Positions 3,859 to 57,863 of a stretch of 64,000 bases of DNA are shown here, piece after piece. Under the pieces are notes generated by a model. It was not told where the DNA came from. It saw only the letters and a program-made list of their open reading frames with translations, and ran no database searches. This stretch comes from an uncultured Candidatus Saccharibacteria bacterium (GTDB lineage: Bacteria; Patescibacteriota; Dojkabacteria; J137), in the NCBI GenBank assembly GCA_964620955.1, contig CAZUKH010000001.1:190810-254809 (forward strand). The letters run 5' to 3'. The translations under genes were made by a program, and so were the position numbers. Within the stretch, counting starts at the first letter, position 1. Each line of letters opens with the position of its first letter.

Positions 3859-5022
3859 TTACAGGCTTCGTGACGGATCTCTTTCTAATGATTGAATTTG
3901 AATATTCGTTTCTAAGGGTTTTTTATTAATTGCTTTTGAAAAGTTTGAGACCAATCCAATCATTGCTGCATTATCTGTTGTAAGTGTTTGATCGAAAGGT
4001 GATCTCATTGTTATTCCTAGCGGCTTTGTTATTTTTCTAACCATTGACCGAAACCTGACATTTGCAATAACCCCTCCACCTAGCCAAACCTCTTGTGGAT
4101 TGTATTGCTTTAAGGCTTTTAAAAGTTTTACTTCAATTTGCCTAAAAGCAACTTGTTCAAACAAAACAGAAAGGTCTAGTATTTGTTGTTTGTTCAGGTT
4201 CATTGTACCATTTGTTTTATTTACAACTAGCTGTTGAAATGCTGTTTTTAGGCCAGAATAACTAAAGTTTAAATCTTTTGAATAGTACATTGGAATTGGT
4301 AGCTCGTATTTTTCAAGTGTTTTTTTGTTTTGGGCTGTTATTACTACTGATTGACTGCGCTTTTCTTCTTTTAATGTTACTTCTAAGCGATTTTGCGAAG
4401 CAAAATCGCTTAGAACTGGCCCGGCAGGGTAACCTATTCCCATTATGCGGCCACACTTATCAAAAGCCTCCCCACATGAGTCATCTTGCGTTTCTGCAAT
4501 TTTTTTATAAACTCCTGGACTTTGAACTACAATCAACTCTGTATGCCCTCCTGAAACAAGTACCCCAAGTGCAGGATAAATATTAGTGTCAAAAAGGCTA
4601 TTCCAGCTTTCTAAAGCCTTTTGCTGCTTTAATTTAATTTTTGATTTTCTTGCAGCAAAGCCAGAAAGCAGGTGACCCTCCATGTGATTGATTGGAAATA
4701 AAGGTTTTTGATTTTTAATTGAAAGTTCTTTAGCTTTATTTATGCCCACCTCTAAAGCTATAGCTAACCCCGGGCCATAGGTAACCGCAACAAAGTCTAT
4801 TTGCTTTATAGTTTTTCCAGCTCTCTTTAAGGCTAAATCTATAACTCCATTGATTCTTTTTTCATGTTCTAGTTTTGCAAGGGACGGTACAACACCCCCA
4901 AACTCTTTATGCATTTGCATTTGTGAAGGGCGGATATTTGAAAGTACAATATTATTCTCAACTACTGCAGCGGATGTTTCATCACATGAAGTATCTATAG
5001 CTAATGTTATTAGTTTTTGCAT
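3859..5022 (-). CDS. tsaD: tRNA N6-adenosine threonylcarbamoyltransferase TsaD (Kae1/YgjD family)
   Basis: N-terminus LAIDTSCDETSAAV, HxxGH-type metal motif (HMEGHLL) and an ASKHA fold-like C-terminal half. Confidence 0.8.
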   Translation of the reverse strand: MQKLITLAIDTSCDETSAAVVENNIVLSNIRPSQMQMHKEFGGVVPSLAKLEHEKRINGVIDLALKRAGKTIKQIDFVAVTYGPGLAIALEVGINKAKELSIKNQKPLFPINHMEGHLLSGFAARKSKIKLKQQKALESWNSLFDTNIYPALGVLVSGGHTELIVVQSPGVYKKIAETQDDSCGEAFDKCGRIMGIGYPAGPVLSDFASQNRLEVTLKEEKRSQSVVITAQNKKTLEKYELPIPMYYSKDLNFSYSGLKTAFQQLVVNKTNGTMNLNKQQILDLSVLFEQVAFRQIEVKLLKALKQYNPQEVWLGGGVIANVRFRSMVRKITKPLGITMRSPFDQTLTTDNAAMIGLVSNFSKAINKKPLETNIQIQSLERDPSRSL

Positions 5023-12227: not shown

Positions 12228-13466
12228 ATGATCAAGATAACTAACTTTACTACAAAGTTTTTTTTAGGTTTACTATCATGTATAGCCCTATGCCTGTGGC
12301 TTGTGAATGTTGTTAATGCTCAGCAAAACTTGCAGGTAGTAACTCTTAAAGATGCTGGAATAGATGAATCGCTGGCAAGAGAAGATATTAACTATACTCT
12401 ACCTACTGATGTAGTTATTGTTCCTGTTAATTATCCAATTAAGCAAAAAACTTTAAACTCTACAGATCTTTATAGAGGTATTTATTTTTATACAGTTGAG
12501 GTTTTAGGTTTTAATGATATCCCTTTTCACTACCTTGTGGGTGAAGATGGAACAATATTTAAAGGCAACACTGGAGGAGATGAACGGAGAATAAGAATTA
12601 GTGGTGTGGGAGAAAGCATGATTGTTATTGGTTATATTACTGATTCTTCCTCAACAAAATTTAGTTCAAGAGCACAGTTAGCGCTTGTAAAAATTATTTC
12701 AGATGTAGTTAATCGTAATTCAATTAATCCTGACAATATCTTTGTTGATGGGGTTGAATTCGTAAGAAATTTGAGCACCAAAAGTGTTTCATTAGTTCAA
12801 AAAGATATTTTTGGAACATGGGGTACCTCTATTGAAGAGATTAAATCTCAAGTTAAACCACTGTACGCACCTATTGCAAAAAGTTATAAGGCTCAAGTAG
12901 ATAACGTTATTTTACCGACAGACCCTGTTAGTCCAGGCTCTGTAGTTGAAGCCAAAATTAGTATTTCGAATTTAAGTTCCAATGGTATGTACGCTGGCAC
13001 GGATTCTGCTCTTATTTTAAGTAAAATTGACGGTACACCAAGCGCATTCTTTTTGAATAACGAGTGGGCAAGTATTTCGCAGGCAAGTTTAATGGATAAT
13101 GATGAAATACTACTTCCTTTCCAAGAGGGCCAATTTAGTTTTAATATTAAAGTACCTTTGTTTCCAGGAGGTCTTTCCGAACAGTTTGAACTACGGACAT
13201 TAGATGGAAGGAAAGTAGAGTCTAACCCTGTAACTATAGCTTTGAACATTGGCCCTGCATCAAGGCAGATTGTGGAAATAAGAAGTAGTGTTGTAAATGC
13301 AGTAGATGTTAAGTCACAGCCTTCGAGTAGTTCGGCCACTGTAGGGCAGGTTTCGGCAGGACAAAGGTTTTATTATGTTTCAGAACAGGATAATGGATGG
13401 CTACAACTAGAGCTTTCAGATGGTACTCCTGGCTGGATTGCAATATGGTTTGTAAATTTTATTTGA
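12228..13466 (+). CDS. secreted protein with C-terminal SH3b-like domain
   Basis: Signal peptide, and a C-terminus (SATVGQVSAGQRFYYVSEQDNGWLQLELSDGTPGWI) resembling a bacterial SH3 domain. Confidence 0.5.
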   Translation: MIKITNFTTKFFLGLLSCIALCLWLVNVVNAQQNLQVVTLKDAGIDESLAREDINYTLPTDVVIVPVNYPIKQKTLNSTDLYRGIYFYTVEVLGFNDIPFHYLVGEDGTIFKGNTGGDERRIRISGVGESMIVIGYITDSSSTKFSSRAQLALVKIISDVVNRNSINPDNIFVDGVEFVRNLSTKSVSLVQKDIFGTWGTSIEEIKSQVKPLYAPIAKSYKAQVDNVILPTDPVSPGSVVEAKISISNLSSNGMYAGTDSALILSKIDGTPSAFFLNNEWASISQASLMDNDEILLPFQEGQFSFNIKVPLFPGGLSEQFELRTLDGRKVESNPVTIALNIGPASRQIVEIRSSVVNAVDVKSQPSSSSATVGQVSAGQRFYYVSEQDNGWLQLELSDGTPGWIAIWFVNFI

Positions 13467-13472
13467 AACTAA

Positions 13473-14261
13473 ATGAAAAAATTATTTTTTTATGTTCCAA
13501 TACTAGCGATTGTATTTTTACTGGGTCTTTTTTTGTCCATGTACTTTGGTGAGGCAAATGGTGGGGTAAGCAATGTAAGGGTTACTAATTTAACTAGCAA
13601 TTCAGTAACTATAAGCTGGGAAACAAAACAGCCTGGATTTGGTTCAATAGTTTACTCAAAAGAAGATTTCTTTCCTGATTTTATTGGTAAGTACATTGCC
13701 AAGTACCGTGAACATGATGATAGAAATGTTTCGAAAGATTTAGAAGAGAGTGGTAGGGTAAATTTAACAGAAAATTTTGATGAGTCTAAAGCTCAAGAAA
13801 GAAGAATTCATCACGTTACTATAAGCGGTCTTGAAGCCGAAACAACTTACTTTTTTAGAATAGATGGCAATATTAAACTTATTAATCCCGAGGTTAACTC
13901 TTTTACAACTCTTTCACAAAACTTGCTAGCTAATGAACCCGACCCTGTTTACGGTTCGGTAATAAATTACATGGCTAACCAAAAAAATCCAACAGATGGA
14001 ATTGTCTACTATCGGGTAGTGAATAAAAATAATGATCAAATTACTTCACAGTGGTATTCAAGCATAATAAAAAATGAAAATTGGAGCGGCGACTTATCGA
14101 AAATGGTAGATACCCTCGGGCAAGTTGTAAACTGGAACTCTTCTGATTATTTATTAAATGTAGAAGCAAAAACCCCGGAAGGAGAGGGAGGGCAAAACTT
14201 AACGTTAGAAACTTACAAACCAATTGAAACAATTATAGTAAATATTAGATATATACCATAA
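13473..14261 (+). CDS. secreted FN3-like (purple-acid-phosphatase N-terminal type) domain protein
   Basis: Signal/TM, then VRVTNLTSNSVTISW...ETTYFFRI, an FN3-like beta-sandwich signature. 6-nt gap to the upstream gene. Confidence 0.5.
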   Translation: MKKLFFYVPILAIVFLLGLFLSMYFGEANGGVSNVRVTNLTSNSVTISWETKQPGFGSIVYSKEDFFPDFIGKYIAKYREHDDRNVSKDLEESGRVNLTENFDESKAQERRIHHVTISGLEAETTYFFRIDGNIKLINPEVNSFTTLSQNLLANEPDPVYGSVINYMANQKNPTDGIVYYRVVNKNNDQITSQWYSSIIKNENWSGDLSKMVDTLGQVVNWNSSDYLLNVEAKTPEGEGGQNLTLETYKPIETIIVNIRYIP

Positions 14262-14263
14262 AC

Positions 14264-16129
14264 ATGAAAAACTTTATTAAACCATTAGTTTTACTATTTG
14301 TTTTGGGGTTTTTAACTGGCGTTATTTTTACTGGTATAAAATTCTCGATTAATGTAGAGGCTGGCAGTGCAATTGAAAATGGCGTGCCTGTTTGTCTTTC
14401 ACCTTACTCAGAATCTTGTGGAGATGGTTGTAACAGGCAAGTAAATTGTGGTTCCAACAAAGAATTTAGACCAGGTCCTTGCGAGTGTTCTAACCCAACA
14501 CAACCTCAATGCCCAGTAGCAACTATTTGGGATGGTAGTACTTGTAAAGGTACTGCTCAAGGTACTAAAGATGAAACGAAAGACCAGGATCCAGTAAAAG
14601 ATGGTGGAGAAAAAGTTGCACCCAAGGCAGCCAAGCCAGCTGATCCAAAAACGCGCGATGAGGCTAATAAGGTAGTTGCTGGTGGTGGTAGTAGTGCAAC
14701 AGGCAGCCAGGGGCAAGGAGTACCTGCAACACCTGTTACCAACCCAGGAGCTTCATGCCCTAACGGAACCTCTCGTTTTACTACTGATAATATTTGCTTA
14801 ACAGAGTGCCCACAAACAAACTGTTTAGCAGATAGCGCTGGAGAAACAAGGTGCTGCCAGCATAGTTCGGAGCCAGGGGGAGATGCTGAAATATCAACTA
14901 ATGAATTAACAGTCTGTCCTCTTACCTTTCATTGTGACGGAACTATTTTTGCAAATTCAGGAAACAGTAGCACAGGAGGTGCTATAAACATATGTTCATA
15001 CATTTTACCTACTGATTCTAGTAGGTCTTTTGGGGTTACACCACAAGTAATCAACAGCGTACAGACATGTGATGTTTTGATAGACCAAGTTAGTGCAAGT
15101 AGTGGTGGAGAAGCTTCCTTAGGCAGTCAAGAGGTACCTGTTGAAATTGCACAATCAATACTAGAACAAAACTGTGCAAGTAAAGGATATAATATGAGGA
15201 CAGATATCCCAAACTATTGCGAATACGATTGCCCAGTGGATCCATACCGTAATCCTGCATTTGCAACAATTTTAGGTGCCGTTCCATGCATTCCAAATGA
15301 TGCACAGGGACAAAACACAAAGCTACCTAGATTAACCAATTTAATCCCTAAAGTTTCTGCACAGGCAGCACCTCCTTTACCACAAACAATTAATCCAGAA
15401 GATTTAGAAAAAGGAGTTTATGTAATAACTATTCCTGGGTATAAAAATGTTGAAATATCTATACTTTACGGAAACTTAAAACTTAAGTATTTTGTAGATT
15501 CTAATGGTGACGGAGTAAAACAAACCGAAGAAGAGTATCTTGATTTAAGTGATTACGAAGTCAGTGTTGCCAAAACATCCTCTATTAACACTTACCAATT
15601 AGATAAAGGGTGGAACTTAGTTGGTCTTAACTTTGTTTCAGAGGATTTAAGCACAGCATCTAAGCTGCTGCGTGAATTAATACGACAAAATGTAGAATCA
15701 GTTCAACTAACAAAATATGATAGTGGTAATTGGATACACTTTGTAATGCGGATTAGCGACAAAGGTGAAATAATAACCTACGGAAACGACTTTACGCTTG
15801 TACCAGGAGAAGGTTACTTTTTAAGAACTTTAAACGAAGGAGCCGTATCACTTGCTGGAAACAGTTTTACAAGTAATGTTCCTGTAAGCTTTGTGCCAGG
15901 ATGGAATTTAATTTCTATACAAACTATACAACAATATACCGCGCAAAGCTTTTTGGAGTTTTGCAATACCCAATCTTTAAATTGCGAATCAATAAGCAGG
16001 TTTGTGGATGGCTTATACGATACCGTAGTAAAAAAAGAATCAAAATATTTTGGAAATATATTTAACATAGAAGACACTAAAGGATATTTTGTTCTTAATA
16101 ATGAAGGACAAAAAGTAATTACACCATAA
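14264..16129 (+). CDS. large Cys-rich secreted/membrane-anchored protein
   Basis: N-terminal TM, a Cys-dense module (CLSPYSESCGDGCNRQVNCGS...CECSNPTQPQCP), a G/S/T/P linker and a large beta-rich C-terminal region. Confidence 0.5.
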   Translation: MKNFIKPLVLLFVLGFLTGVIFTGIKFSINVEAGSAIENGVPVCLSPYSESCGDGCNRQVNCGSNKEFRPGPCECSNPTQPQCPVATIWDGSTCKGTAQGTKDETKDQDPVKDGGEKVAPKAAKPADPKTRDEANKVVAGGGSSATGSQGQGVPATPVTNPGASCPNGTSRFTTDNICLTECPQTNCLADSAGETRCCQHSSEPGGDAEISTNELTVCPLTFHCDGTIFANSGNSSTGGAINICSYILPTDSSRSFGVTPQVINSVQTCDVLIDQVSASSGGEASLGSQEVPVEIAQSILEQNCASKGYNMRTDIPNYCEYDCPVDPYRNPAFATILGAVPCIPNDAQGQNTKLPRLTNLIPKVSAQAAPPLPQTINPEDLEKGVYVITIPGYKNVEISILYGNLKLKYFVDSNGDGVKQTEEEYLDLSDYEVSVAKTSSINTYQLDKGWNLVGLNFVSEDLSTASKLLRELIRQNVESVQLTKYDSGNWIHFVMRISDKGEIITYGNDFTLVPGEGYFLRTLNEGAVSLAGNSFTSNVPVSFVPGWNLISIQTIQQYTAQSFLEFCNTQSLNCESISRFVDGLYDTVVKKESKYFGNIFNIEDTKGYFVLNNEGQKVITP

Positions 16130-16131
16130 AA

Positions 16132-17154
16132 ATGTCGAATCAACAAAAGAGGACAATCCTTTCGTTTCTTTTTTTAGTGCTTATGGTGCTGGCTATTGCT
16201 GCTTTTGCTGTAGCCGCTTCGTTAAACTCAGATGTGTCTGTAGATTTTGAAGTAGGCATAGCACCTCAAGAATTAGTTATAAGCAACGTTACTCAAAACG
16301 GCTTTACTGTATCTTGGGTGTCGCAGGAAGCAGAGCAAGGGCTTGTTAAATACGGGTTAGAAACAACTTTACTAGCTACAACTGCTATAGACTTTAGAGG
16401 GGAAGAATCTTCAACACTACACTATGTAAGAATAACAGATCTTGACCCTGCTACCACTTACTATTTTGAAATTTACTCGGGCAATACTGTATTTAAAAAT
16501 AATAATCTATACTTTTCGCAATCAACACTTGGAAATGAAGCATCATTGGGAACGCCAGAAAGCATTACACTCACCCTACCAGAAACTTTTACTGAAGGAA
16601 TCATTTACGCATATGCCTCAAATGGAATTCAAACTTCAACAATTGCGTCTTCCATTGCGTCATCAAACTCAGCACTTATTGATGTTTCAACTCTTAGAGA
16701 TCCAACTACGCAGGAGCTTTTTGATTTGACACTGTCACAGGTAAGGATACACGTTACCAGCGATCAACTATTACGCGCAGTAGATACACTAGCAGTAGGT
16801 CAACAAGATTTAACAATAAACGAACTTAGCTCAGAAACCTCAGCGTTTTTAGTTCCCGAAGTATTTGCAGTTGATTTACCAACACCTATTGAAGAGCCAG
16901 AAGAGGAAGAACCTGTAGAAGAAGACATTGTTGAAGAAGATCCACGCGTAATAGAAGAAGAACCAATAGCACAAAACCCAGCTCCAGTAATAATTCCCCA
17001 ACAACTTCCTCCTGCATCTCAACAGCCAGTTGTTGTTGCAAACAGCAGTCCTTTACCTTCAACAGCAATTTCAACAGGCGAACTACTTATTGGACTTAGT
17101 GGGTTGGGACTACTCGTTGTTGGAATAGCCCTTAAAAAGAACTCTAGTCTTTAA
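16132..17154 (+). CDS. FN3-like surface protein with LPSTA-type sorting signal
   Basis: FN3-like N-terminus (FTVSWVS...ATTYYFEI), an acidic E/P linker, and a C-terminal LPSTA + hydrophobic segment + KKN tail. Confidence 0.5.
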   Translation: MSNQQKRTILSFLFLVLMVLAIAAFAVAASLNSDVSVDFEVGIAPQELVISNVTQNGFTVSWVSQEAEQGLVKYGLETTLLATTAIDFRGEESSTLHYVRITDLDPATTYYFEIYSGNTVFKNNNLYFSQSTLGNEASLGTPESITLTLPETFTEGIIYAYASNGIQTSTIASSIASSNSALIDVSTLRDPTTQELFDLTLSQVRIHVTSDQLLRAVDTLAVGQQDLTINELSSETSAFLVPEVFAVDLPTPIEEPEEEEPVEEDIVEEDPRVIEEEPIAQNPAPVIIPQQLPPASQQPVVVANSSPLPSTAISTGELLIGLSGLGLLVVGIALKKNSSL

Positions 17155-49787: not shown

Positions 49788-50348
49788 TTACAAGTAAGTT
49801 CGTGGAGTTATTGCAATTGCAACAATACTTATAAAACATAAAAGGGCCATTACAAAAAACAACAAATCAAAGCCCGATGTTACAACTAAAGCTCCACCAA
49901 TTAGTGCCCCTATAGCTGATACTAAGTAATTCATTGTTTCCCAAGTGCCCCAGGCAGTACCTTCATGGCCTTTCTTAACATGATGAGAGTAGAGTGCATC
50001 ATGAGCGGGAAGGGAAACTGCATCTCCAAAACCTAAAATAATTTGAATTAATATTACCTCTTCTGTCGTTTTTGCAAATACTAGCAAAATATAGCCGAAG
50101 AAGATCATAAAGTAGCCTAGTAATAAAACGTATTCTTGCTCTTTAATTTTATCGGTAATTTTCCCGGTTATAAAGCTTGTTACTGCTGCTACTGTTGCAA
50201 ATACAGCAAACGTAACGCTTGCATCAAACAAGTTTCCGCCTTTGTCTTCAACAAAAATCGCAAATATTGGTCCAAGCATTGCTGCACAAAGCATTACAAG
50301 CCCTTGGGCTGAGAGTAAAAGTGTTAGCGGTGATAAAAATGATTTCAA
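49788..50348 (-). CDS. MFS-like six-TM membrane protein (half-size; possible fragment)
   Basis: 186 aa with 6 TM helices resembling one half of an MFS transporter. Abuts tRNA-Ser. Confidence 0.35.
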   Translation of the reverse strand: MKSFLSPLTLLLSAQGLVMLCAAMLGPIFAIFVEDKGGNLFDASVTFAVFATVAAVTSFITGKITDKIKEQEYVLLLGYFMIFFGYILLVFAKTTEEVILIQIILGFGDAVSLPAHDALYSHHVKKGHEGTAWGTWETMNYLVSAIGALIGGALVVTSGFDLLFFVMALLCFISIVAIAITPRTYL

Positions 50349-50406
50349 CTTAGATTTATGTTACCTAAACAAGATAAGCTAAATCTTAAATGATTTCAAA
50401 GGGGCT

Positions 50407-50494
50407 CGGAGAGTGAGGGGTTCGAACCCTCGTGACGCTTGCGCATCCAGCCGTTTTCGAGACGGAGCCGTTATGACCGCTTCGGTAACTCTCC
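50407..50494 (-). tRNA. tRNA-Ser (anticodon CGA)
   Basis: Manual fold: acceptor GGAGAGT/ACTCTCC, T-arm GAGGG-TTCGAAC-CCCTC, anticodon loop CTCGAAA, long variable arm. No encoded CCA. Confidence 0.75.
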
Positions 50495-50767
50495 ATTTAT
50501 AGTATCGAACATGTTCTTTAGTAAGAACTGTATTCGTTCACGACCCTTTCCAGCTTTCAGGAAGCTTTCTTCCTTTTGAGCATCAAGTTTAACAACAAAG
50601 CCTCGTATATAGACCACTCCATATGGTAAACCCTTGGCGGTAAATGGAACAAGGCCTGAGCTGTGTTGAGACAGCCTTCTTTTAAAATTTACCGTAAGAA
50701 CAGTATAAAACGTTTTTAATTTATGATTATATAAAATATATGCATACTCCTTAAGAGATTTTAACAT
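50471..50767 (-). CDS. GIY-YIG nuclease-domain small protein
   Basis: YAYILYN...KTFYTVLTVNFKRRLSQHSSG matches GIY...YIG..R. Its 3' end overlaps the tRNA-Ser 5' end by 24 nt. Confidence 0.6.
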   Translation of the reverse strand: MLKSLKEYAYILYNHKLKTFYTVLTVNFKRRLSQHSSGLVPFTAKGLPYGVVYIRGFVVKLDAQKEESFLKAGKGRERIQFLLKNMFDTINGELPKRS

Positions 50768-51683: not shown

Positions 51684-51757
51684 TACGCTAGAGAGGACTC
51701 GAACCTCTAACCGCTTCCTCCGCAAGGAAGTGCTCTATCCAATTGAGCTACTAGCGC
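51684..51757 (-). tRNA. tRNA-Arg (anticodon read as GCG)
   Basis: Manual fold: acceptor GCGCTAG/CTAGCGT, D-arm GCTC-AATTGGATA-GAGC (A20 present), anticodon stem CTTCC/GGAAG with loop TTGCGGA, T-arm AGAGG-TTCGAGT-CCTCT. Confidence 0.7.
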
Positions 51758-52410: not shown

Positions 52411-54297
52411 TCATTTCTTAATATGTAACCTTCTTGCCCGACTAACTATTACTAGTGCTATGACTATCAAAAGAGGTAGCATCAAAATAATATTTCTCGT
52501 AATTTGGGATTCAACCCCAAAATTTATAAGTAATGTGTTTACTCCAGTTACCACAGCCGTAAGGTAAATACCTAGAGTCTTTATAACAAGCTGAACCCCT
52601 TTTGGGTCTTGGTAATTGCTAAGTACCTGTTCTTGAGTTTGCCCAGTAGATAAACCCTCAAGGCTACCTATAATGCTTATATCCATTCTTCTGTCTATTT
52701 GCCCTTGTAATTCGCCCACATAAGAAAGCTGGCTGGTACTTGGGGTATTTGGGTCTAATGACGCAACATGGGTTAGAAAGTGGTTTAAATCTCCCCCGAG
52801 TATTTCGTTGCCAAAATCTCCCCAGGTGGTATCAATTGATACCCATCTGTTTTGAGCAGGGTAGTAAACTTCTGCCCACTGATGATTAATATCGTTAGTT
52901 TCATTTACAATAAAGTCAAGAGATCCATACCCAAAACCGAATGCTGCCCGTGCTGGAATGCCTTGTGCTCTCAACAGGGCGATAAAAAGGTCTGAGTACT
53001 CCATACATACTGCCGCACTTCCTTTTAAAGTTGCCAACGCCCCCTGGCGTTCGTTAAGCCCGAATTTCTTTACAAAACTATAGTCTATTTTTTTAATAAC
53101 AAAGTCGTATGTGCTTTGAACAATTTCGAATATGTTTGTTTTATTGGCTTTGAGTAATTCGGCTTGTTTAAGCAATTCTAGGTTGTCGGATTCCCAGTAA
53201 ATAGCAGGCTGTAGGTAGTCACTCATTTGGCTAGGTATTATGTCAATATCACCCGAGTTTTTAATATCAAAAGTTAAATCACTTTCCAAAACTGCATAAC
53301 CTTCGATTAAAATTTTTTGATTAGCTGATGCAGAGTATCGATATTCAAACATGAGATTATTGTCTTTATCTGTGAAAACTTTAAATGGGGCTGGGCTAAT
53401 GTTTGTGAAATAAACTTTTTGGGTAATTCCACCAGTTTGTGTATCTCTTGGTACTGGAAGCACGGAGCTGTTGATTGCAGCAAAAAAACTTGAAGTAGAA
53501 GGAAGGTTTTTTTCTATTTTAAACTTAAAATATTGCTTTGTTCCAATTTGAACCCATGTGCTTTTACCTGAAAAACTTTCTTGTGAGATATCGAATTTAT
53601 AAAAAGTATCTAATTCTTCGTAGGTGTTTTTGGGTTGTGTAAAATTGATTGAGCCAAGGCTTTTGGGTATGTTTAAAACTGTTTTAACTATTTTTTGTGT
53701 AGTACTTGAATCTTCTAAATATCCTTCAGGAAATCCAGGAATATAAACATCTTTTACTGCTCCGGCTGTTTGCATCAACCCATAAGAGTTATATTGTAAG
53801 TTAAAGGTCTCACTTGTTTGGCTTGTTATTGTTTGTGGAATTATAATTTTTAGAATTTCATTGGAATTATCTGTTGGCTCAACTTTAAACGCTACGGGGT
53901 TACCTGACTTGTCTGTTAAAACAATTGATTCAATAGTTTTTTTCTTTTTTGTTTCATAACTGGGGTCTTCTTTTGCAGGGTGAAATATAGTGAATGATTC
54001 TTCAGCTCCTGCCGGCACTTGGAAAAGAGGGCTAATTATTGAAGTTGTTTTTGATTCTGTAACTTTTACAAAATCTTCCGAAACCTCGAAATTTCTGTTG
54101 TGCTCGGAAAGGATTATTGCGGCACTAACGGTTGTTTTTAACTTTATTAATAACAATGCTATAAGCGCTAATATTAAAATGCTAATCTTTAGTTTTAGCA
54201 ATAATCCAGTCACGTTATGGTTGAAGATTAGTTTATTTAGTCTTGGCTCTTGTTTATAGGCTTGTGGGGTTTGACAACGCAACAATAAATTATACAT
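52411..54297 (-). CDS. transglutaminase-like superfamily membrane protein
   Basis: N- and C-terminal TM segments. Core AAVCMEYSDLFIALLRAQGIPAR (catalytic Cys context of transglutaminase-like cysteine proteases) plus downstream His/Asp. Confidence 0.6.
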   Translation of the reverse strand: MYNLLLRCQTPQAYKQEPRLNKLIFNHNVTGLLLKLKISILILALIALLLIKLKTTVSAAIILSEHNRNFEVSEDFVKVTESKTTSIISPLFQVPAGAEESFTIFHPAKEDPSYETKKKKTIESIVLTDKSGNPVAFKVEPTDNSNEILKIIIPQTITSQTSETFNLQYNSYGLMQTAGAVKDVYIPGFPEGYLEDSSTTQKIVKTVLNIPKSLGSINFTQPKNTYEELDTFYKFDISQESFSGKSTWVQIGTKQYFKFKIEKNLPSTSSFFAAINSSVLPVPRDTQTGGITQKVYFTNISPAPFKVFTDKDNNLMFEYRYSASANQKILIEGYAVLESDLTFDIKNSGDIDIIPSQMSDYLQPAIYWESDNLELLKQAELLKANKTNIFEIVQSTYDFVIKKIDYSFVKKFGLNERQGALATLKGSAAVCMEYSDLFIALLRAQGIPARAAFGFGYGSLDFIVNETNDINHQWAEVYYPAQNRWVSIDTTWGDFGNEILGGDLNHFLTHVASLDPNTPSTSQLSYVGELQGQIDRRMDISIIGSLEGLSTGQTQEQVLSNYQDPKGVQLVIKTLGIYLTAVVTGVNTLLINFGVESQITRNIILMLPLLIVIALVIVSRARRLHIKK

Positions 54298-54347
54298 AAC
54301 ATGATTTTAGCAGATGAATAATTAAAAATATTATTTGTTTTTTAAAC

Positions 54348-54728
54348 TTGCGTAAACTTAATTTAATGAGCTATACTCCTTGCGTGAGCGAACAAACTAC
54401 TGCAATTGTAATGCCGGAAATTGACGCAGGTGGCAACCACAAAATTGAAACGGTGCAAGGATGCCCTCCAGGCTGTCCCTTCCTTCAACATCATCCTTAC
54501 CATGGAGGGCTTTGTAAAGCTTCGGAACTTTTAAATAATGGACCAACTAAAGCTTCAAACGGATCAGGTGAAACTACACTTGATATTTTAAAAACATTTG
54601 CATTAACTAATGAGTGTCCAATGGGATTACGGGTTATGCCTGAAGGTAAGAGTTTTTTGAAAGTAAATTTTGGTGGTGAAACTTACCACCTCGGATTGCT
54701 AAAGCAGCGAGACCATTTAGAGTTTTAA
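54348..54728 (+). CDS. small Cys4 protein (paralog A), unknown function
   Basis: 126 aa with GCPPGCPFLQ plus two further Cys (..GGLC.., ..NECP..). Locally GC-elevated. Confidence 0.4.
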   Translation: MRKLNLMSYTPCVSEQTTAIVMPEIDAGGNHKIETVQGCPPGCPFLQHHPYHGGLCKASELLNNGPTKASNGSGETTLDILKTFALTNECPMGLRVMPEGKSFLKVNFGGETYHLGLLKQRDHLEF

Positions 54729-54736
54729 TAAATACT

Positions 54737-55207
54737 ATGGCTAATCAAGATGATCCATTAATTGTTGACGCCGTACTTAACTATGTACCTAGTGGTTTCA
54801 AATTACAAGAAACCATCACTTACTACCCACATGGTTGCTTGAATTGTCCTTTTCACCAAATAAGAGCTGAAATTGATAATTTTGCTGGACACCCTATATA
54901 TGTGATTTCAGCTTGCACTCTTGGTGAAGCAATAGAACAATCTGCAACAAGACATCAAGGCGACTTTAACCCTGGAGAAGATGTCGAAATAATTCTGCTT
55001 GCTATTGCCGATCTTCTTGGCAGCCCAGGGAAGCTTGTAGTTTTGGAGCAATGCCCTTCAGAGATATCAATGTTGCGTGCATATCACCCAGTAAAATTTG
55101 GAAACCAGCACCTTTTTATATTATTCCCGGTTTCAGCCGACGCCGGTGCCGAGTTTTCAAAAACCCCTCACTTAGTTTTTGCTTTTGAGCTTCCAAGCGA
55201 GAGCTAA
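54737..55207 (+). CDS. small Cys4 protein (paralog B), unknown function
   Basis: 156 aa with GCLNCPFHQ plus ..SAC.. and ..EQCP... Same Cys pattern as the upstream gene; 8-nt gap to it. Confidence 0.4.
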   Translation: MANQDDPLIVDAVLNYVPSGFKLQETITYYPHGCLNCPFHQIRAEIDNFAGHPIYVISACTLGEAIEQSATRHQGDFNPGEDVEIILLAIADLLGSPGKLVVLEQCPSEISMLRAYHPVKFGNQHLFILFPVSADAGAEFSKTPHLVFAFELPSES

Positions 55208-55239
55208 TAGTTAAAGATATTAGATAATCTAATATCTTT

Positions 55240-57462
55240 TTGCTTTTAGTTTTCCCTTTTTACTTTCTTCCTCTTTTAGTAACCTTTAAAAGTATTCATG
55301 TTAAACTGTTTAATATGTTAAATCTTACAGACTTTAACCCACAACAAAAGGAAGCAATCGAAACAACCGAAGGGCCTTTGCTTGTGCTGGCAGGGGCTGG
55401 TTCAGGAAAAACTCGCGTTTTAACTCATAGAATAGCTTATATTTTAGATACTGGACTCGCTAACCCTGAAAATATACTTGCAGTTACATTTACCAATAAA
55501 GCTGCAGGTGAAATGAAACAAAGAATAGCAACCATTTTGACAAGCCAACAAAGTGAAGTTAGAACAAATAAGTATAAGTTACAAGTTCCTAGCTGGGTAG
55601 GAACATTTCACTCAATAGGAGTAAGAATTCTAAAGCTTTATGGAGAGCAAGTAGGGGTTGGCACTAACTTTTCAATTTATGATTCCTCTGATCAAACAAT
55701 GCTGGTTAAAGAGTCAATGAAAGATTTAGATATTTCTACAAAAGAAGTCAACCCCAATGCTGTTCATCACTATATTTCTTCGGCAAAAAATGAGCTAATT
55801 AGCCCGTTGGACTATCAATCTTATGCCCAGGGCTATTTTCAACAAATTGTTGCAGATGTTTACGCAGTATATGAAAAAAAACTTAGAGAAAATAACGCTG
55901 TTGACTTTGATGATTTAATATTATTAATGATTAAACTTTTTGAACAAAACTCTGTAGTACTCTCAAACTTTCAGGAGCAATTTTTATATATACTTGTTGA
56001 TGAGTATCAAGATACCAACCATGCACAATATCAGCTAATCAAGATGTTGTCTCAAAAACATAAAAATATTTGTGCTGTAGGAGATGATGATCAAAGCATT
56101 TATTCATTTAGAGGTGCAAATATAAAAAATATTTTAAATTTTGAAAGAGGTTACCCAAATTGCACAATTATTAAACTTGAGCAAAACTATCGCTCTACCA
56201 AAACGATTCTTGAGGCTTCTTACAATGTAATTAGCAAAAATAAACAAAGAAAAGATAAAAAGCTTTGGACAAATAATACCTCTGGGTCAAAAATATTAGT
56301 TTATACAGCAAGAGATGAAAAAGATGAGGGCAGATGGGTAGTCGATAAAATAAAAGAAGAGCAGAGTAAAGGTGTAAGCTTTAATGATTTTGCGGTGCTT
56401 TATCGAACAAATGCTCAATCGAGAGCGCTTGAAGAAGCTTTTATTAACTCAGCAACTCCATACAATATTGTTGGTGGTGTTAGATTTTATGAAAGAAAGG
56501 AAATTAAAGATGTACTTGCATACCTTAAGTTGCTTGTAAATGGGAAAGATAGAACAAGCTTTGAAAGAGTAATAAACGTTCCAAGGCGTGGCATTGGGCC
56601 GAAAGCTGTAGAAGAAATATATGTGGTAGCTAAAAGAAATGGCATAAACCCTGTGGAAGTTATTAAAGAAGGAAAAATGCATGACATAACTAATGCAAAA
56701 GTTATTCAATTTGGAGAATTACTTACCAGGCTTGTTAATAAGATGGATAGTATGAATCTTATCGAATTTATAAATTACCTGTTGGAATCAACAGGTTATA
56801 TAAAAATGCTTGAAGATGGTTCAGCTGAAAATGAAGCTAGAATTGAAAATATTAAGGAGCTTATAACCGTTGCCTCTAAGTTTGCTGACTTAGAAATTAA
56901 AGAAGCCTTAGAGTTATTTTTAGAGGAAGTATCGTTACTAGAGGGCGCAGTTGAAAACGTGAACCAAAACGAAAAAGTTACACTTATGACAATTCACGCT
57001 GCAAAAGGGTTGGAATTTCCGCACGTTTTTGTGGTTGGCGTTGAAGAAAACCTTTTCCCACATGCAAATTCTGCGGTTGATGAAAAAGAACTTGAAGAAG
57101 AAAGAAGGCTTGCCTATGTTGCAATAACAAGGGCCAAGCAAAACCTTTACCTTACGCATGCAGCAAATAGAATGTATTTCGGAAAACCATCTGCAAACAG
57201 GGCTTCACGATTTCTTGAAGATATAAGTACAGATTTGATTCAAGTTGAAGGGGTTGTTGATTCTGCATTCAACTTTAATCATTTTGATATAGAAGAGAGT
57301 GATTACCATATAGATTTGAAACCTGGTGACAGGGTTAAACATGAGTATTTTGGACAAGGAGTAGTCAAATCCATTGATGACGAGGTAATCATAGTAGATT
57401 TCGGAGCATCTTATGGCCTAAAAGAACTTATGATTGAGTATGCGAAGCTAAGTAAAAACTAA
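55240..57462 (+). CDS. uvrD: ATP-dependent DNA helicase UvrD/PcrA
   Basis: Helicase motifs I (AGAGSGKT), II (DEYQDTN) and others through VI. The likely true start is the internal Met at about 55315 (MLNLTDFNPQQ...). Confidence 0.9.
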   Translation: MLLVFPFYFLPLLVTFKSIHVKLFNMLNLTDFNPQQKEAIETTEGPLLVLAGAGSGKTRVLTHRIAYILDTGLANPENILAVTFTNKAAGEMKQRIATILTSQQSEVRTNKYKLQVPSWVGTFHSIGVRILKLYGEQVGVGTNFSIYDSSDQTMLVKESMKDLDISTKEVNPNAVHHYISSAKNELISPLDYQSYAQGYFQQIVADVYAVYEKKLRENNAVDFDDLILLMIKLFEQNSVVLSNFQEQFLYILVDEYQDTNHAQYQLIKMLSQKHKNICAVGDDDQSIYSFRGANIKNILNFERGYPNCTIIKLEQNYRSTKTILEASYNVISKNKQRKDKKLWTNNTSGSKILVYTARDEKDEGRWVVDKIKEEQSKGVSFNDFAVLYRTNAQSRALEEAFINSATPYNIVGGVRFYERKEIKDVLAYLKLLVNGKDRTSFERVINVPRRGIGPKAVEEIYVVAKRNGINPVEVIKEGKMHDITNAKVIQFGELLTRLVNKMDSMNLIEFINYLLESTGYIKMLEDGSAENEARIENIKELITVASKFADLEIKEALELFLEEVSLLEGAVENVNQNEKVTLMTIHAAKGLEFPHVFVVGVEENLFPHANSAVDEKELEEERRLAYVAITRAKQNLYLTHAANRMYFGKPSANRASRFLEDISTDLIQVEGVVDSAFNFNHFDIEESDYHIDLKPGDRVKHEYFGQGVVKSIDDEVIIVDFGASYGLKELMIEYAKLSKN

Positions 57463-57512: not shown

Positions 57513-57863
57513 GTGGCACAAAGTTTGCTTAGAATAAAATCTTACAACTTCGCTTTAAAAGTAGTTGGGTTATACGAGGAGCTACGTATGTCAAAAGAAT
57601 ATGATTTGGCGCGGCAATTACTAAAAAGCGGGACATCTATAGGAGCTAATATTGAAGAAGCTTTCGGTTCCCAGTCTAAGAAAGAGTTCTCTTCAAAGCT
57701 GTCAATCTCGTATAAGGAGTGTTTAGAAACAAAGTACTGGTTAAATTTGCTTGTAGATAGTGATAAAATTGAAGCTAATAAGGGGGAAGAGCTCATACAG
57801 AACCTAACTGAGATAGCCAAGATGTTAGCTAGCTCAAGAATTACCGTGATGAAGAGTTTATAG
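57513..57863 (+). CDS. four-helix-bundle protein (23S rRNA intervening-sequence protein family)
   Basis: 116 aa. SYNFALKVV...LARQLLKSGTSIGANIEEA...KYWLNLL pattern of the TIGR02436-type family. Confidence 0.7.
   Translation: MAQSLLRIKSYNFALKVVGLYEELRMSKEYDLARQLLKSGTSIGANIEEAFGSQSKKEFSSKLSISYKECLETKYWLNLLVDSDKIEANKGEELIQNLTEIAKMLASSRITVMKSL

Follow-up and report, generated by a model that had tools for sequence, protein, structure and literature searches.

What kind of proteins do two small, adjacent, cysteine-rich genes encode that lie between a transglutaminase-like gene and uvrD in an uncultured candidate-phyla-radiation bacterium, and how did they come to lie there? This question is raised by a 64,000-nucleotide stretch of contig CAZUKH010000001.1 (hereafter the window), in which a sequence-only reading had described two open reading frames (ORFs), here called ORF1 and ORF2, as paralogues of suspected foreign origin that share a possibly metal-binding cysteine module. 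We favor, at a probability of roughly 0.4, an explanation in which ORF1 and ORF2 are a real pair of orphan genes, inserted in this lineage, whose products would hold a metal ion or metal cofactor.

Two small genes with a distinctive core motif

ORF1 (54366 to 54728, plus strand) encodes 120 amino acids from the ATG at 54366, the form carried in the NCBI-derived protein collection, or 126 amino acids from a TTG at 54348, and terminates with a double stop (TAATAA). ORF2 (54737 to 55207, plus strand) encodes 156 amino acids and follows after a gap of 8 nucleotides (nt) in a different reading frame. The ORF table thus confirmed the earlier description of two same-strand ORFs of 126 and 156 amino acids with an 8-nt gap. 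The possibility that the two are parts of one split gene was ruled out by the differing frames, the TAATAA end of ORF1 and the lack of a full-length homologue.

Sequence reading and a motif scan placed the core motif G-C-P-P-G-C-P-F-L-Q, followed by HHPYH, at 54459 to 54488 (plus strand) in ORF1 and the core motif G-C-L-N-C-P-F-H-Q at 54833 to 54859 (plus strand) in ORF2, both as originally claimed, and in all six frames of the window the pattern C-x(2,3)-C-P-F matched solely in these two ORFs. The CxxC ascribed to both proteins is present in ORF2 (CX2C, locally H-x-C-x2-C-x2-H) but not in ORF1, whose knuckle is CX3C (C-P-P-G-C), contains two Cys-Pro dipeptides and reads locally C-x3-C-x4-H-H-x2-H. 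ORF1 carries cysteines at positions 6, 33, 37, 50 and 84 (120-residue numbering) and histidines at 25, 42, 43, 46, 108 and 117; ORF2 carries cysteines at 34, 37, 60 and 106 and histidines at 32, 40, 52, 73, 117, 125 and 145. In ORF2 the core is preceded by a hydrophobic stretch, ETITYY, and followed by an amphipathic one (F39, I42, I46, F49), and residues 22-29 are predicted as a strand by a low-confidence AlphaFold2 (AF2) model. The isoelectric point (pI) is 6.0 for ORF1 and 4.7 for ORF2, which has a net charge of −12.

As far as sequence statistics can say, both ORFs are real protein-coding genes, because their codon log-odds fall in the range of real genes, a single frame is open in each and GC content at third codon positions (GC3) is lower than at first positions (GC1). 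A codon model trained on 31 long window genes, with log-odds per codon as the score, gave 0.205 for ORF1 and 0.274 for ORF2, compared with 0.27 ± 0.05 for the training genes and 0.255 ± 0.084 for 15 small genes left out of the training; 16 spurious overlapping ORFs scored −0.047 ± 0.155 (maximum 0.133), all below ORF1 and ORF2. The other five frames of ORF1 scored −0.2 to −0.9 and contained 5-12 stops, and those of ORF2 were likewise negative, with 8-11 stops.

The GC content of the pair, earlier put at ~45% and taken as a sign of foreign origin, measured 41.4% for ORF1 and 41.7% for ORF2, compared with 34.8% for the window and 35.8 ± 2.2% for window genes, and other patches of the window also attain 40-43%. 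The excess lies in codon positions 1 and 2 (GC1 of 0.52 in ORF1 and 0.57 in ORF2 versus 0.458 ± 0.039 in host genes). GC3 (0.29 and 0.31 versus 0.259 ± 0.026) is below GC1, as in host genes, and a score based on synonymous codons only placed both ORFs within the host distribution (z = −0.7). Since third positions and synonymous usage are host-like, the excess reflects amino acid composition, with Gly, Pro, Ala, Cys and His elevated and Lys reduced, and not alien DNA; the GC argument for foreign origin therefore fails.

A putative metal or metal-cofactor site

The composition of the two proteins fits a site with thiolate and imidazole ligands. Cysteine makes up 4.2% of ORF1 and 2.6% of ORF2 compared with 0.7% in window genes (6-fold and 3.7-fold), and histidine 5.0% and 4.5% compared with 1.4% (~3.5-fold). 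Proline follows five of the nine cysteines of the pair, compared with 6.3% of cysteines in window genes (P = 1e-4, or 4e-3 when aligned positions are counted once).

The two proteins resemble each other weakly and may be related. In shuffle tests the z score was 2.2-3.0 (p 0.015-0.04) at standard gap costs; cheap gaps raised it to 4.2-4.3 (p ~0.001-0.002) and gave an alignment that is collinear through GC..CPF.Q, the next Cys, GE..IL..A, (E/Q)CP, V.FG and HL..L; length-corrected z scores relative to 57 real window proteins were 3.5 and 2.2. On balance we consider paralogy somewhat better than an even bet. ORF1 and ORF2 would then probably, though not provably, be old tandem duplicates of one module, for which we propose the order strand, G-C-x2-3-C-P-F-x-Q, C, GE..(I/L)L helix, (E/Q)-C-P, V-x-F-G and H-L-x-x-L.

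A metal or metal-cofactor site, zinc or iron-sulfur (Fe-S), appears to be the most economical reading of these features. In this model both proteins would be small and cytoplasmic and would hold a metal ion or metal cofactor, most likely Zn2+ or an Fe-S cluster, coordinated by the knuckle thiolates (C-x2-3-C-P), by both distal cysteines and by flanking histidines. Neither a signal peptide nor a membrane segment is visible in ORF1 or ORF2, which would place the cysteines in the reducing cytoplasm. Because the genes lie 8 nt apart in a genome without Shine-Dalgarno sites, they are probably produced together and their products used together. Paralogy, metal binding and formation of a heteromer are all properties that we only infer from these features.

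Known modules with a β-loop(CxxC)-α arrangement offer leads for such a site. These include glutaredoxin and thioredoxin, heavy-metal-associated (HMA) domains, the Nfu/NifU C-terminal domain and DUF59/SufT (T-x-x-G-C-P), all of which place thiolates at a strand-helix junction, and in Nfu the cluster is common to two subunits, an arrangement that would suit a two-protein unit. ORF2 resembles these modules in its hydrophobic strand-like stretch, G-C-x-x-C-P, amphipathic helix-like stretch and second hydrophobic stretch. In contrast, ORF1 has a CX3C knuckle without a later helix-like stretch, both proteins are longer (120 and 156 residues) with extra C-terminal strands, and hmmscan against Pfam-A gave no family, so that neither Nfu/NifU C-terminal (PF01106), DUF59/SufT (PF01883) nor HMA (PF00403) profiles matched. 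A bolder proposal, which we regard as unlikely, is that the pair founds a new family of small thiolate-ligand proteins whose two diverged subunits would surround a common metal center, as in an Nfu-like inter-subunit Fe-S cluster, or bind heme at C-P-F-H/L-Q, and which a single deep lineage of Dojkabacteria-like bacteria would have acquired from a source not yet sampled.

A probable separate transcription unit inserted between conserved neighbors

ORF1 and ORF2 appear to form a unit of their own. Directly 3′ of the ORF2 stop and ahead of the uvrD ATG at 55315 lies an intrinsic-terminator-like hairpin with a T-rich tail (55201 to 55262, plus strand). Its core is a perfect 13+13-nt palindrome (55213-55239; an inverted repeat with 100% complementarity) that is unique in the window, and its folding energy of −19.6 kcal/mol (z −6.1) was equaled in 0 of 200 shuffles. 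A scan for consensus terminators overlooked the hairpin because the stem has fewer than three G-C pairs, and an Rfam scan of the region returned sub-threshold miRNA noise over the hairpin and nothing else. The hairpin and T-run after ORF2 therefore set the ORF1-ORF2 unit apart from uvrD.

Signals at the other end are less distinctive. A promoter-like site, TTAGCA-16-TATTAT (54307 to 54334, plus strand; 9/12 consensus matches), precedes ORF1 within the 68 bp that separate it from the divergent transglutaminase-like gene; the site is weak evidence, as promoter-like sites in the region (six) showed no excess over shuffles (4.0 ± 1.9). A Shine-Dalgarno core of at least 4 nt at −20 to −4 is found in only 1 of 48 window genes, so its absence at ORF1 and ORF2 is no objection to their being genes. 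TATAAT-like boxes lie 6-10 nt before the ATG of several window genes (e.g. at 1573, 3859 to 5022 on the minus strand, and 38757). The window as a whole suggests a genome with Shine-Dalgarno-independent and partly leaderless translation initiation.

The genes on either side of the pair are conserved. The left anchor (52411 to 54297, minus strand), divergent from ORF1, encodes a 628-residue transglutaminase-like protein (PF01841, E 1.8e-18), and the right anchor (55315 to 57462, plus strand) encodes a UvrD/PcrA helicase (PF00580, PF13361). The uvrD start is most likely the ATG at 55315 and not the TTG at 55240, because the orthologue in L001 (CAZWRA010000017.1), the closest genome of the GTDB set, begins at the equivalent MIDLSHLNPQQK. 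Most homologues of the transglutaminase-like protein carry the name Candidatus Dojkabacteria (the former WS6 division), and apart from the protein itself the best matches are 46-49% identical. Among GTDB species representatives UvrD is matched best, at 63% identity, by a metagenome-assembled genome labelled Saccharibacteria. Best relatives this distant indicate that the host lineage is poorly sampled, and we take the window to derive from a Dojkabacteria-like lineage of the candidate phyla radiation. L001 itself is labelled uncultured Candidatus Saccharibacteria, and homologues of the transglutaminase-like protein otherwise carry the name Candidatus Dojkabacteria; the label of the L001 record may be imprecise.

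Comparison of nine related loci indicated that the pair was gained in this lineage. In six of them (L001, L084, L087, L088, L089 and L090) the transglutaminase-like gene directly adjoins uvrD in divergent orientation, at a distance of 60-239 bp, within a wider conserved block of the form trmD - uvrD / transglutaminase-like - ~190-residue protein ... argS. L081 has a gene for a 23S rRNA intervening sequence protein between the two anchors, L083 has four unrelated genes there, and L082 is rearranged. In the window the anchors are separated by a 1017-bp spacer occupied by ORF1, ORF2 and the terminator, and the pair was not found at any of the nine loci. Because the anchors adjoin each other in six of the nine relatives, the pair is a lineage-specific insertion, not an ancestral feature, at a spot that took other inserts elsewhere. 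The earlier idea that the pair is not native here is thus upheld in the sense of being non-ancestral. Searches found neither an integrase nor a significant flanking repeat at the insert, and no similar DNA elsewhere.

The sequence-only reading had also asked whether the pair always adjoins uvrD. It does not: relatives keep uvrD without the pair, and the terminator hairpin separates ORF2 from uvrD. Neither the conserved co-occurrence nor the co-transcription expected of a uvrD accessory factor was seen, and the pair has no conserved association with uvrD, to which nothing ties it functionally.

Two further observations concern this spot. A 20-nt inverted repeat with 75% complementarity (ATGAATA...TATTCAT; 54314-54333 and 55280-55299) brackets the insert of ORF1, ORF2 and terminator almost exactly, 17 nt from the start of the transglutaminase-like gene and 15 nt from that of uvrD, a position suggestive of insert ends. 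As flanking terminal inverted repeats, however, these sequences were rejected as a probable product of chance in AT-rich DNA, in which 53 such pairs occur within 2 kb. In addition, a gene for the 23S rRNA intervening sequence protein (PF05635) recurs near uvrD: it follows uvrD in the window (57513-57863, plus strand) and in L001 (10213-10452), takes the spot of ORF1 and ORF2 in L081 (2703-2972), and is located ~1.1 kb downstream of the transglutaminase-like gene in L082 (7885-8250).

Searches for homologues and related structures

Searches of protein families, protein collections and nucleotide collections detected no homologue of ORF1 or ORF2 outside their own genome, which makes them orphan genes with respect to the collections searched. 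Scans of Pfam, NCBIfam, PHROGs and PADLOC at E up to 10, in which HMMER filters let through little above E ~0.1, gave no match for either protein; the sole PHROG listing (E 1.2 over 8 residues) is not a match. Searches of PDB sequences with each protein, a two-sequence profile and the N-terminal modules alone returned chance matches, with E of at least 0.014 and no qualifying stretch, or of ~0.7-1. In a word-index search of 5.8 billion proteins ORF1 and ORF2 each matched themselves only. An exhaustive phmmer search of 1.84 billion cluster representatives with ORF2 found ORF2 itself and three eukaryotic tandem-repeat proteins, which were rejected as artefacts whose scores were summed from many weak repeats.

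Nucleotide-level searches were equally empty. Viral contigs and JGI metagenome contigs gave no match to ORF1 or ORF2, the transglutaminase-like anchor also being unmatched in the JGI set, and tblastn and blastn against phages and plasmids gave no real match; two hits at E ~0.5 were discarded because they lie antisense to other genes. Further paralogues were absent from the window and from ~90 fetched loci scanned by tblastn, motif and blastn. The statement that no family could be assigned therefore holds for every library and collection searched.

This outcome is not remarkable in itself for small, fast-evolving proteins, since the nearest sampled genomes are distant. ORF1 and ORF2 resemble other orphan genes of the candidate phyla radiation in their small size, lack of homologues, position in an indel between conserved syntenic genes and poorly sampled host. 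Unlike most orphans, they share a distinctive Cys-Pro-rich core and are high in Cys and His.

Evidence that weighs against the favored explanation

A number of results nevertheless count against a pair of related metal- or cofactor-holding proteins. BLASTP of ORF1 against ORF2 returned two weak high-scoring segment pairs (HSPs; E 0.03 and 0.29, not significant), and hhalign of the single sequences gave E 0.13; paralogy is plausible, but the original claim put it too firmly. The N-terminal register is ambiguous as well, as MAFFT and the best BLAST HSP pair EIDAGGNHKIETVQGC of ORF1 with EIDNFAGHPIYVISAC of ORF2 and not the CPF cores with each other. With two rival registers, four cysteines at conserved positions hold in one register only: the additional cysteines cited earlier (GGLC/SAC and NECP/EQCP) do exist and align in the second BLASTP HSP, but their correspondence depends on the register. 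The spacing of the knuckles also differs between CX3C in ORF1 and CX2C in ORF2.

The cysteine arrangement departs from classical metal sites. The pair resembles zinc ribbons and rubredoxin-like proteins in having a cysteine knuckle with Pro, small size and at least four cysteines. These folds need two CxxC or CPxC knuckles, however, and ORF1 and ORF2 have one each, so that neither is a classical zinc ribbon; the isolated cysteines (6, 50 and 84 in ORF1; 60 and 106 in ORF2) include ones 13-23 and 34-46 residues further on.

The searches add to this side of the balance. No Pfam metal-binding or redox family matched either protein, even at permissive E, and the protein-collection search for ORF1 consisted of the word index only (one candidate), exhaustive HMMER searching having been applied to ORF2 only. 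Single-sequence AF2 models of the two proteins had mean confidence scores (pLDDT) of 42.8 and 37.3 and were unusable, and Foldseek searches of the PDB with these models gave no match at E ≤ 0.001. The MITD1, sliding-clamp and PH-domain entries that Foldseek listed are meaningless at this model confidence.

Alternative explanations

Among the alternatives, the one that survives best is an accessory cassette of mobile origin, whether toxin-antitoxin-like, a defence or anti-defence system or a phage moron, in which the cysteines would be structural only and the function would not involve metal chemistry. In its favor are a lineage-specific insertion where relatives carry different inserts, a pair of small genes in the same orientation that are separated by 8 nt and have a terminator to themselves, the acidity of ORF2 and the presence of tRNA genes 2.6-4 kb away. 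We consider it unlikely, given that PADLOC, PHROG, Pfam and NCBIfam profiles, toxin-antitoxin and defence profiles among them, did not match, nor did phages, plasmids or viral contigs; that neither an integrase nor significant flanking repeats accompany the pair, the 20-nt, 75% repeat at 54314/55280 being at chance level; that synonymous codon usage is host-like; and that a shared core motif is not normal for a toxin and its antitoxin.

The pair could also serve thiol-disulfide redox chemistry, with ORF2 as a glutaredoxin- or thioredoxin-like protein, whose CxxC would follow a β-strand and open a helix, and ORF1 as a degenerate partner. The order in ORF2 of an ETITYY strand, PHG-CLNC-PF, an amphipathic HQIRAEIDNF and a hydrophobic PIYVISA would correspond to β1-CxxC-α1-β2, and HMMER weakly aligned the ORF2 segment lnCPF-hqiRaeidnf with the CPFC active-site segment in the glutaredoxin-like domain of prostaglandin E synthase 2 (PDB 1z9h). 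This match is not significant, however (E 0.8); the active-site segment contributed −2.1 bits, the score coming mostly from an unrelated N-terminal stretch, and the N-terminal module alone was unmatched in the PDB. Pfam and NCBIfam glutaredoxin and thioredoxin profiles did not match, a cis-Pro loop could not be identified, and the AF2 model, though of low confidence, lacks the fold. The strand-CxxC-helix pattern is moreover visible in ORF2 only, the CX3C of ORF1 being followed by a Pro/Gly-rich coil and no helix. Together these results make a redox pair distinctly unlikely.

ORF1 and ORF2 might instead be non-functional, whether as ORFs that arose by chance or as inserted DNA in decay, and not be expressed as useful proteins. 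In favor are the absence of any relative in 5.8 billion proteins, the low AlphaFold confidence and a constraint that is not demonstrable without homologues. We hold this to be very unlikely. Both score like real genes in a single frame each, together they take up the 1-kb spacer, both on one strand, with 8 nt between them and a terminator behind, and their joint enrichment in Cys, His and Cys-Pro together with a common motif is unexpected in random ORFs. Given that conserved proteins of the closest relative sampled share only 46-63% identity, homology of small proteins would be expected to escape detection even in real genes.

The C-P-F core could, finally, be a CP-type heme-regulatory motif that binds heme or metalloporphyrin transiently through the Cys thiolate and a nearby His. 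The IRP2 peptide TPILCPFHLQPV binds heme, as does its variant TPILCPFLQHPV (PMC10377097, Table 1), and Irr carries the heme-regulatory motif GCPWHD (PMC11442138). Next to C-P-F-H-L-Q of IRP2 and G-C-P-W-H-D of Bradyrhizobium Irr, the cores of ORF2 (N-C-P-F-H-Q) and ORF1 (G-C-P-F-L-Q-H-H) are near-identical as short linear motifs, with Cys-Pro followed by an aromatic residue and a His within 2-5 residues, and Cys-Pro dipeptides are enriched in the pair; the ORF1 core lies in predicted coil. The resemblance holds at the level of the motif only, the motif being no homologous domain and its carriers being unrelated proteins. A heme-regulatory role is highly improbable, as a motif of just 4-6 residues is easily matched by chance, the extra Cys 2-3 residues upstream in the knuckle belongs to no heme-regulatory motif, no heme-related gene is found among the annotated window genes and candidate-phyla-radiation bacteria of this type are fermentative and not known to synthesize heme or possess cytochromes.

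Other features of the window

A 621-residue protein (14264-16129, plus strand) contains 3.9% Cys (~24 cysteines, five of them in Cys-Pro) and is unmatched in Pfam. Proteins on both sides of it carry purple-acid-phosphatase-N/fn3-like and SH3 domains (12228-13466, 13473-14261 and 16132-17154), and the products of this cluster (12228-17154) are probably secreted or surface proteins.

Closer to the pair, an ORF for a half-length transporter of the major facilitator superfamily (MFS; 49788-50348, minus strand; 186 residues from a TTG start) covers positions 2-170 of the 347-position MFS_1 profile and may be either a truncated gene or part of a split transporter. The gene for tRNA-Ser(CGA) (50406-50495, minus strand) overlaps by 25 nt the 3′ end of an ORF for a 98-residue GIY-YIG-domain protein (50471-50767, minus strand). 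Between it and the tRNA-Arg(GCG) gene (51684-51757) lies a 225-residue ORF without a Pfam match that contains an H-E-x-x-H string (MHEIMH).

Significance of the pair

In practice ORF1 and ORF2 are an orphan pair from a single genome, which is ordinary for sparsely sampled lineages and permits no wider inference yet. The main value of the pair may lie in offering a small, cheap biochemical target (120 + 156 residues) with a distinctive Cys-Pro-rich core. If the explanation that we favor is true, these small Cys/His proteins would represent a sequence family not seen before, one that binds a metal or cofactor, in the candidate phyla radiation, about whose metal and redox biology almost nothing is known. 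Their insertion would also illustrate cleanly how genes are gained at a defined indel flanked by conserved neighbors.

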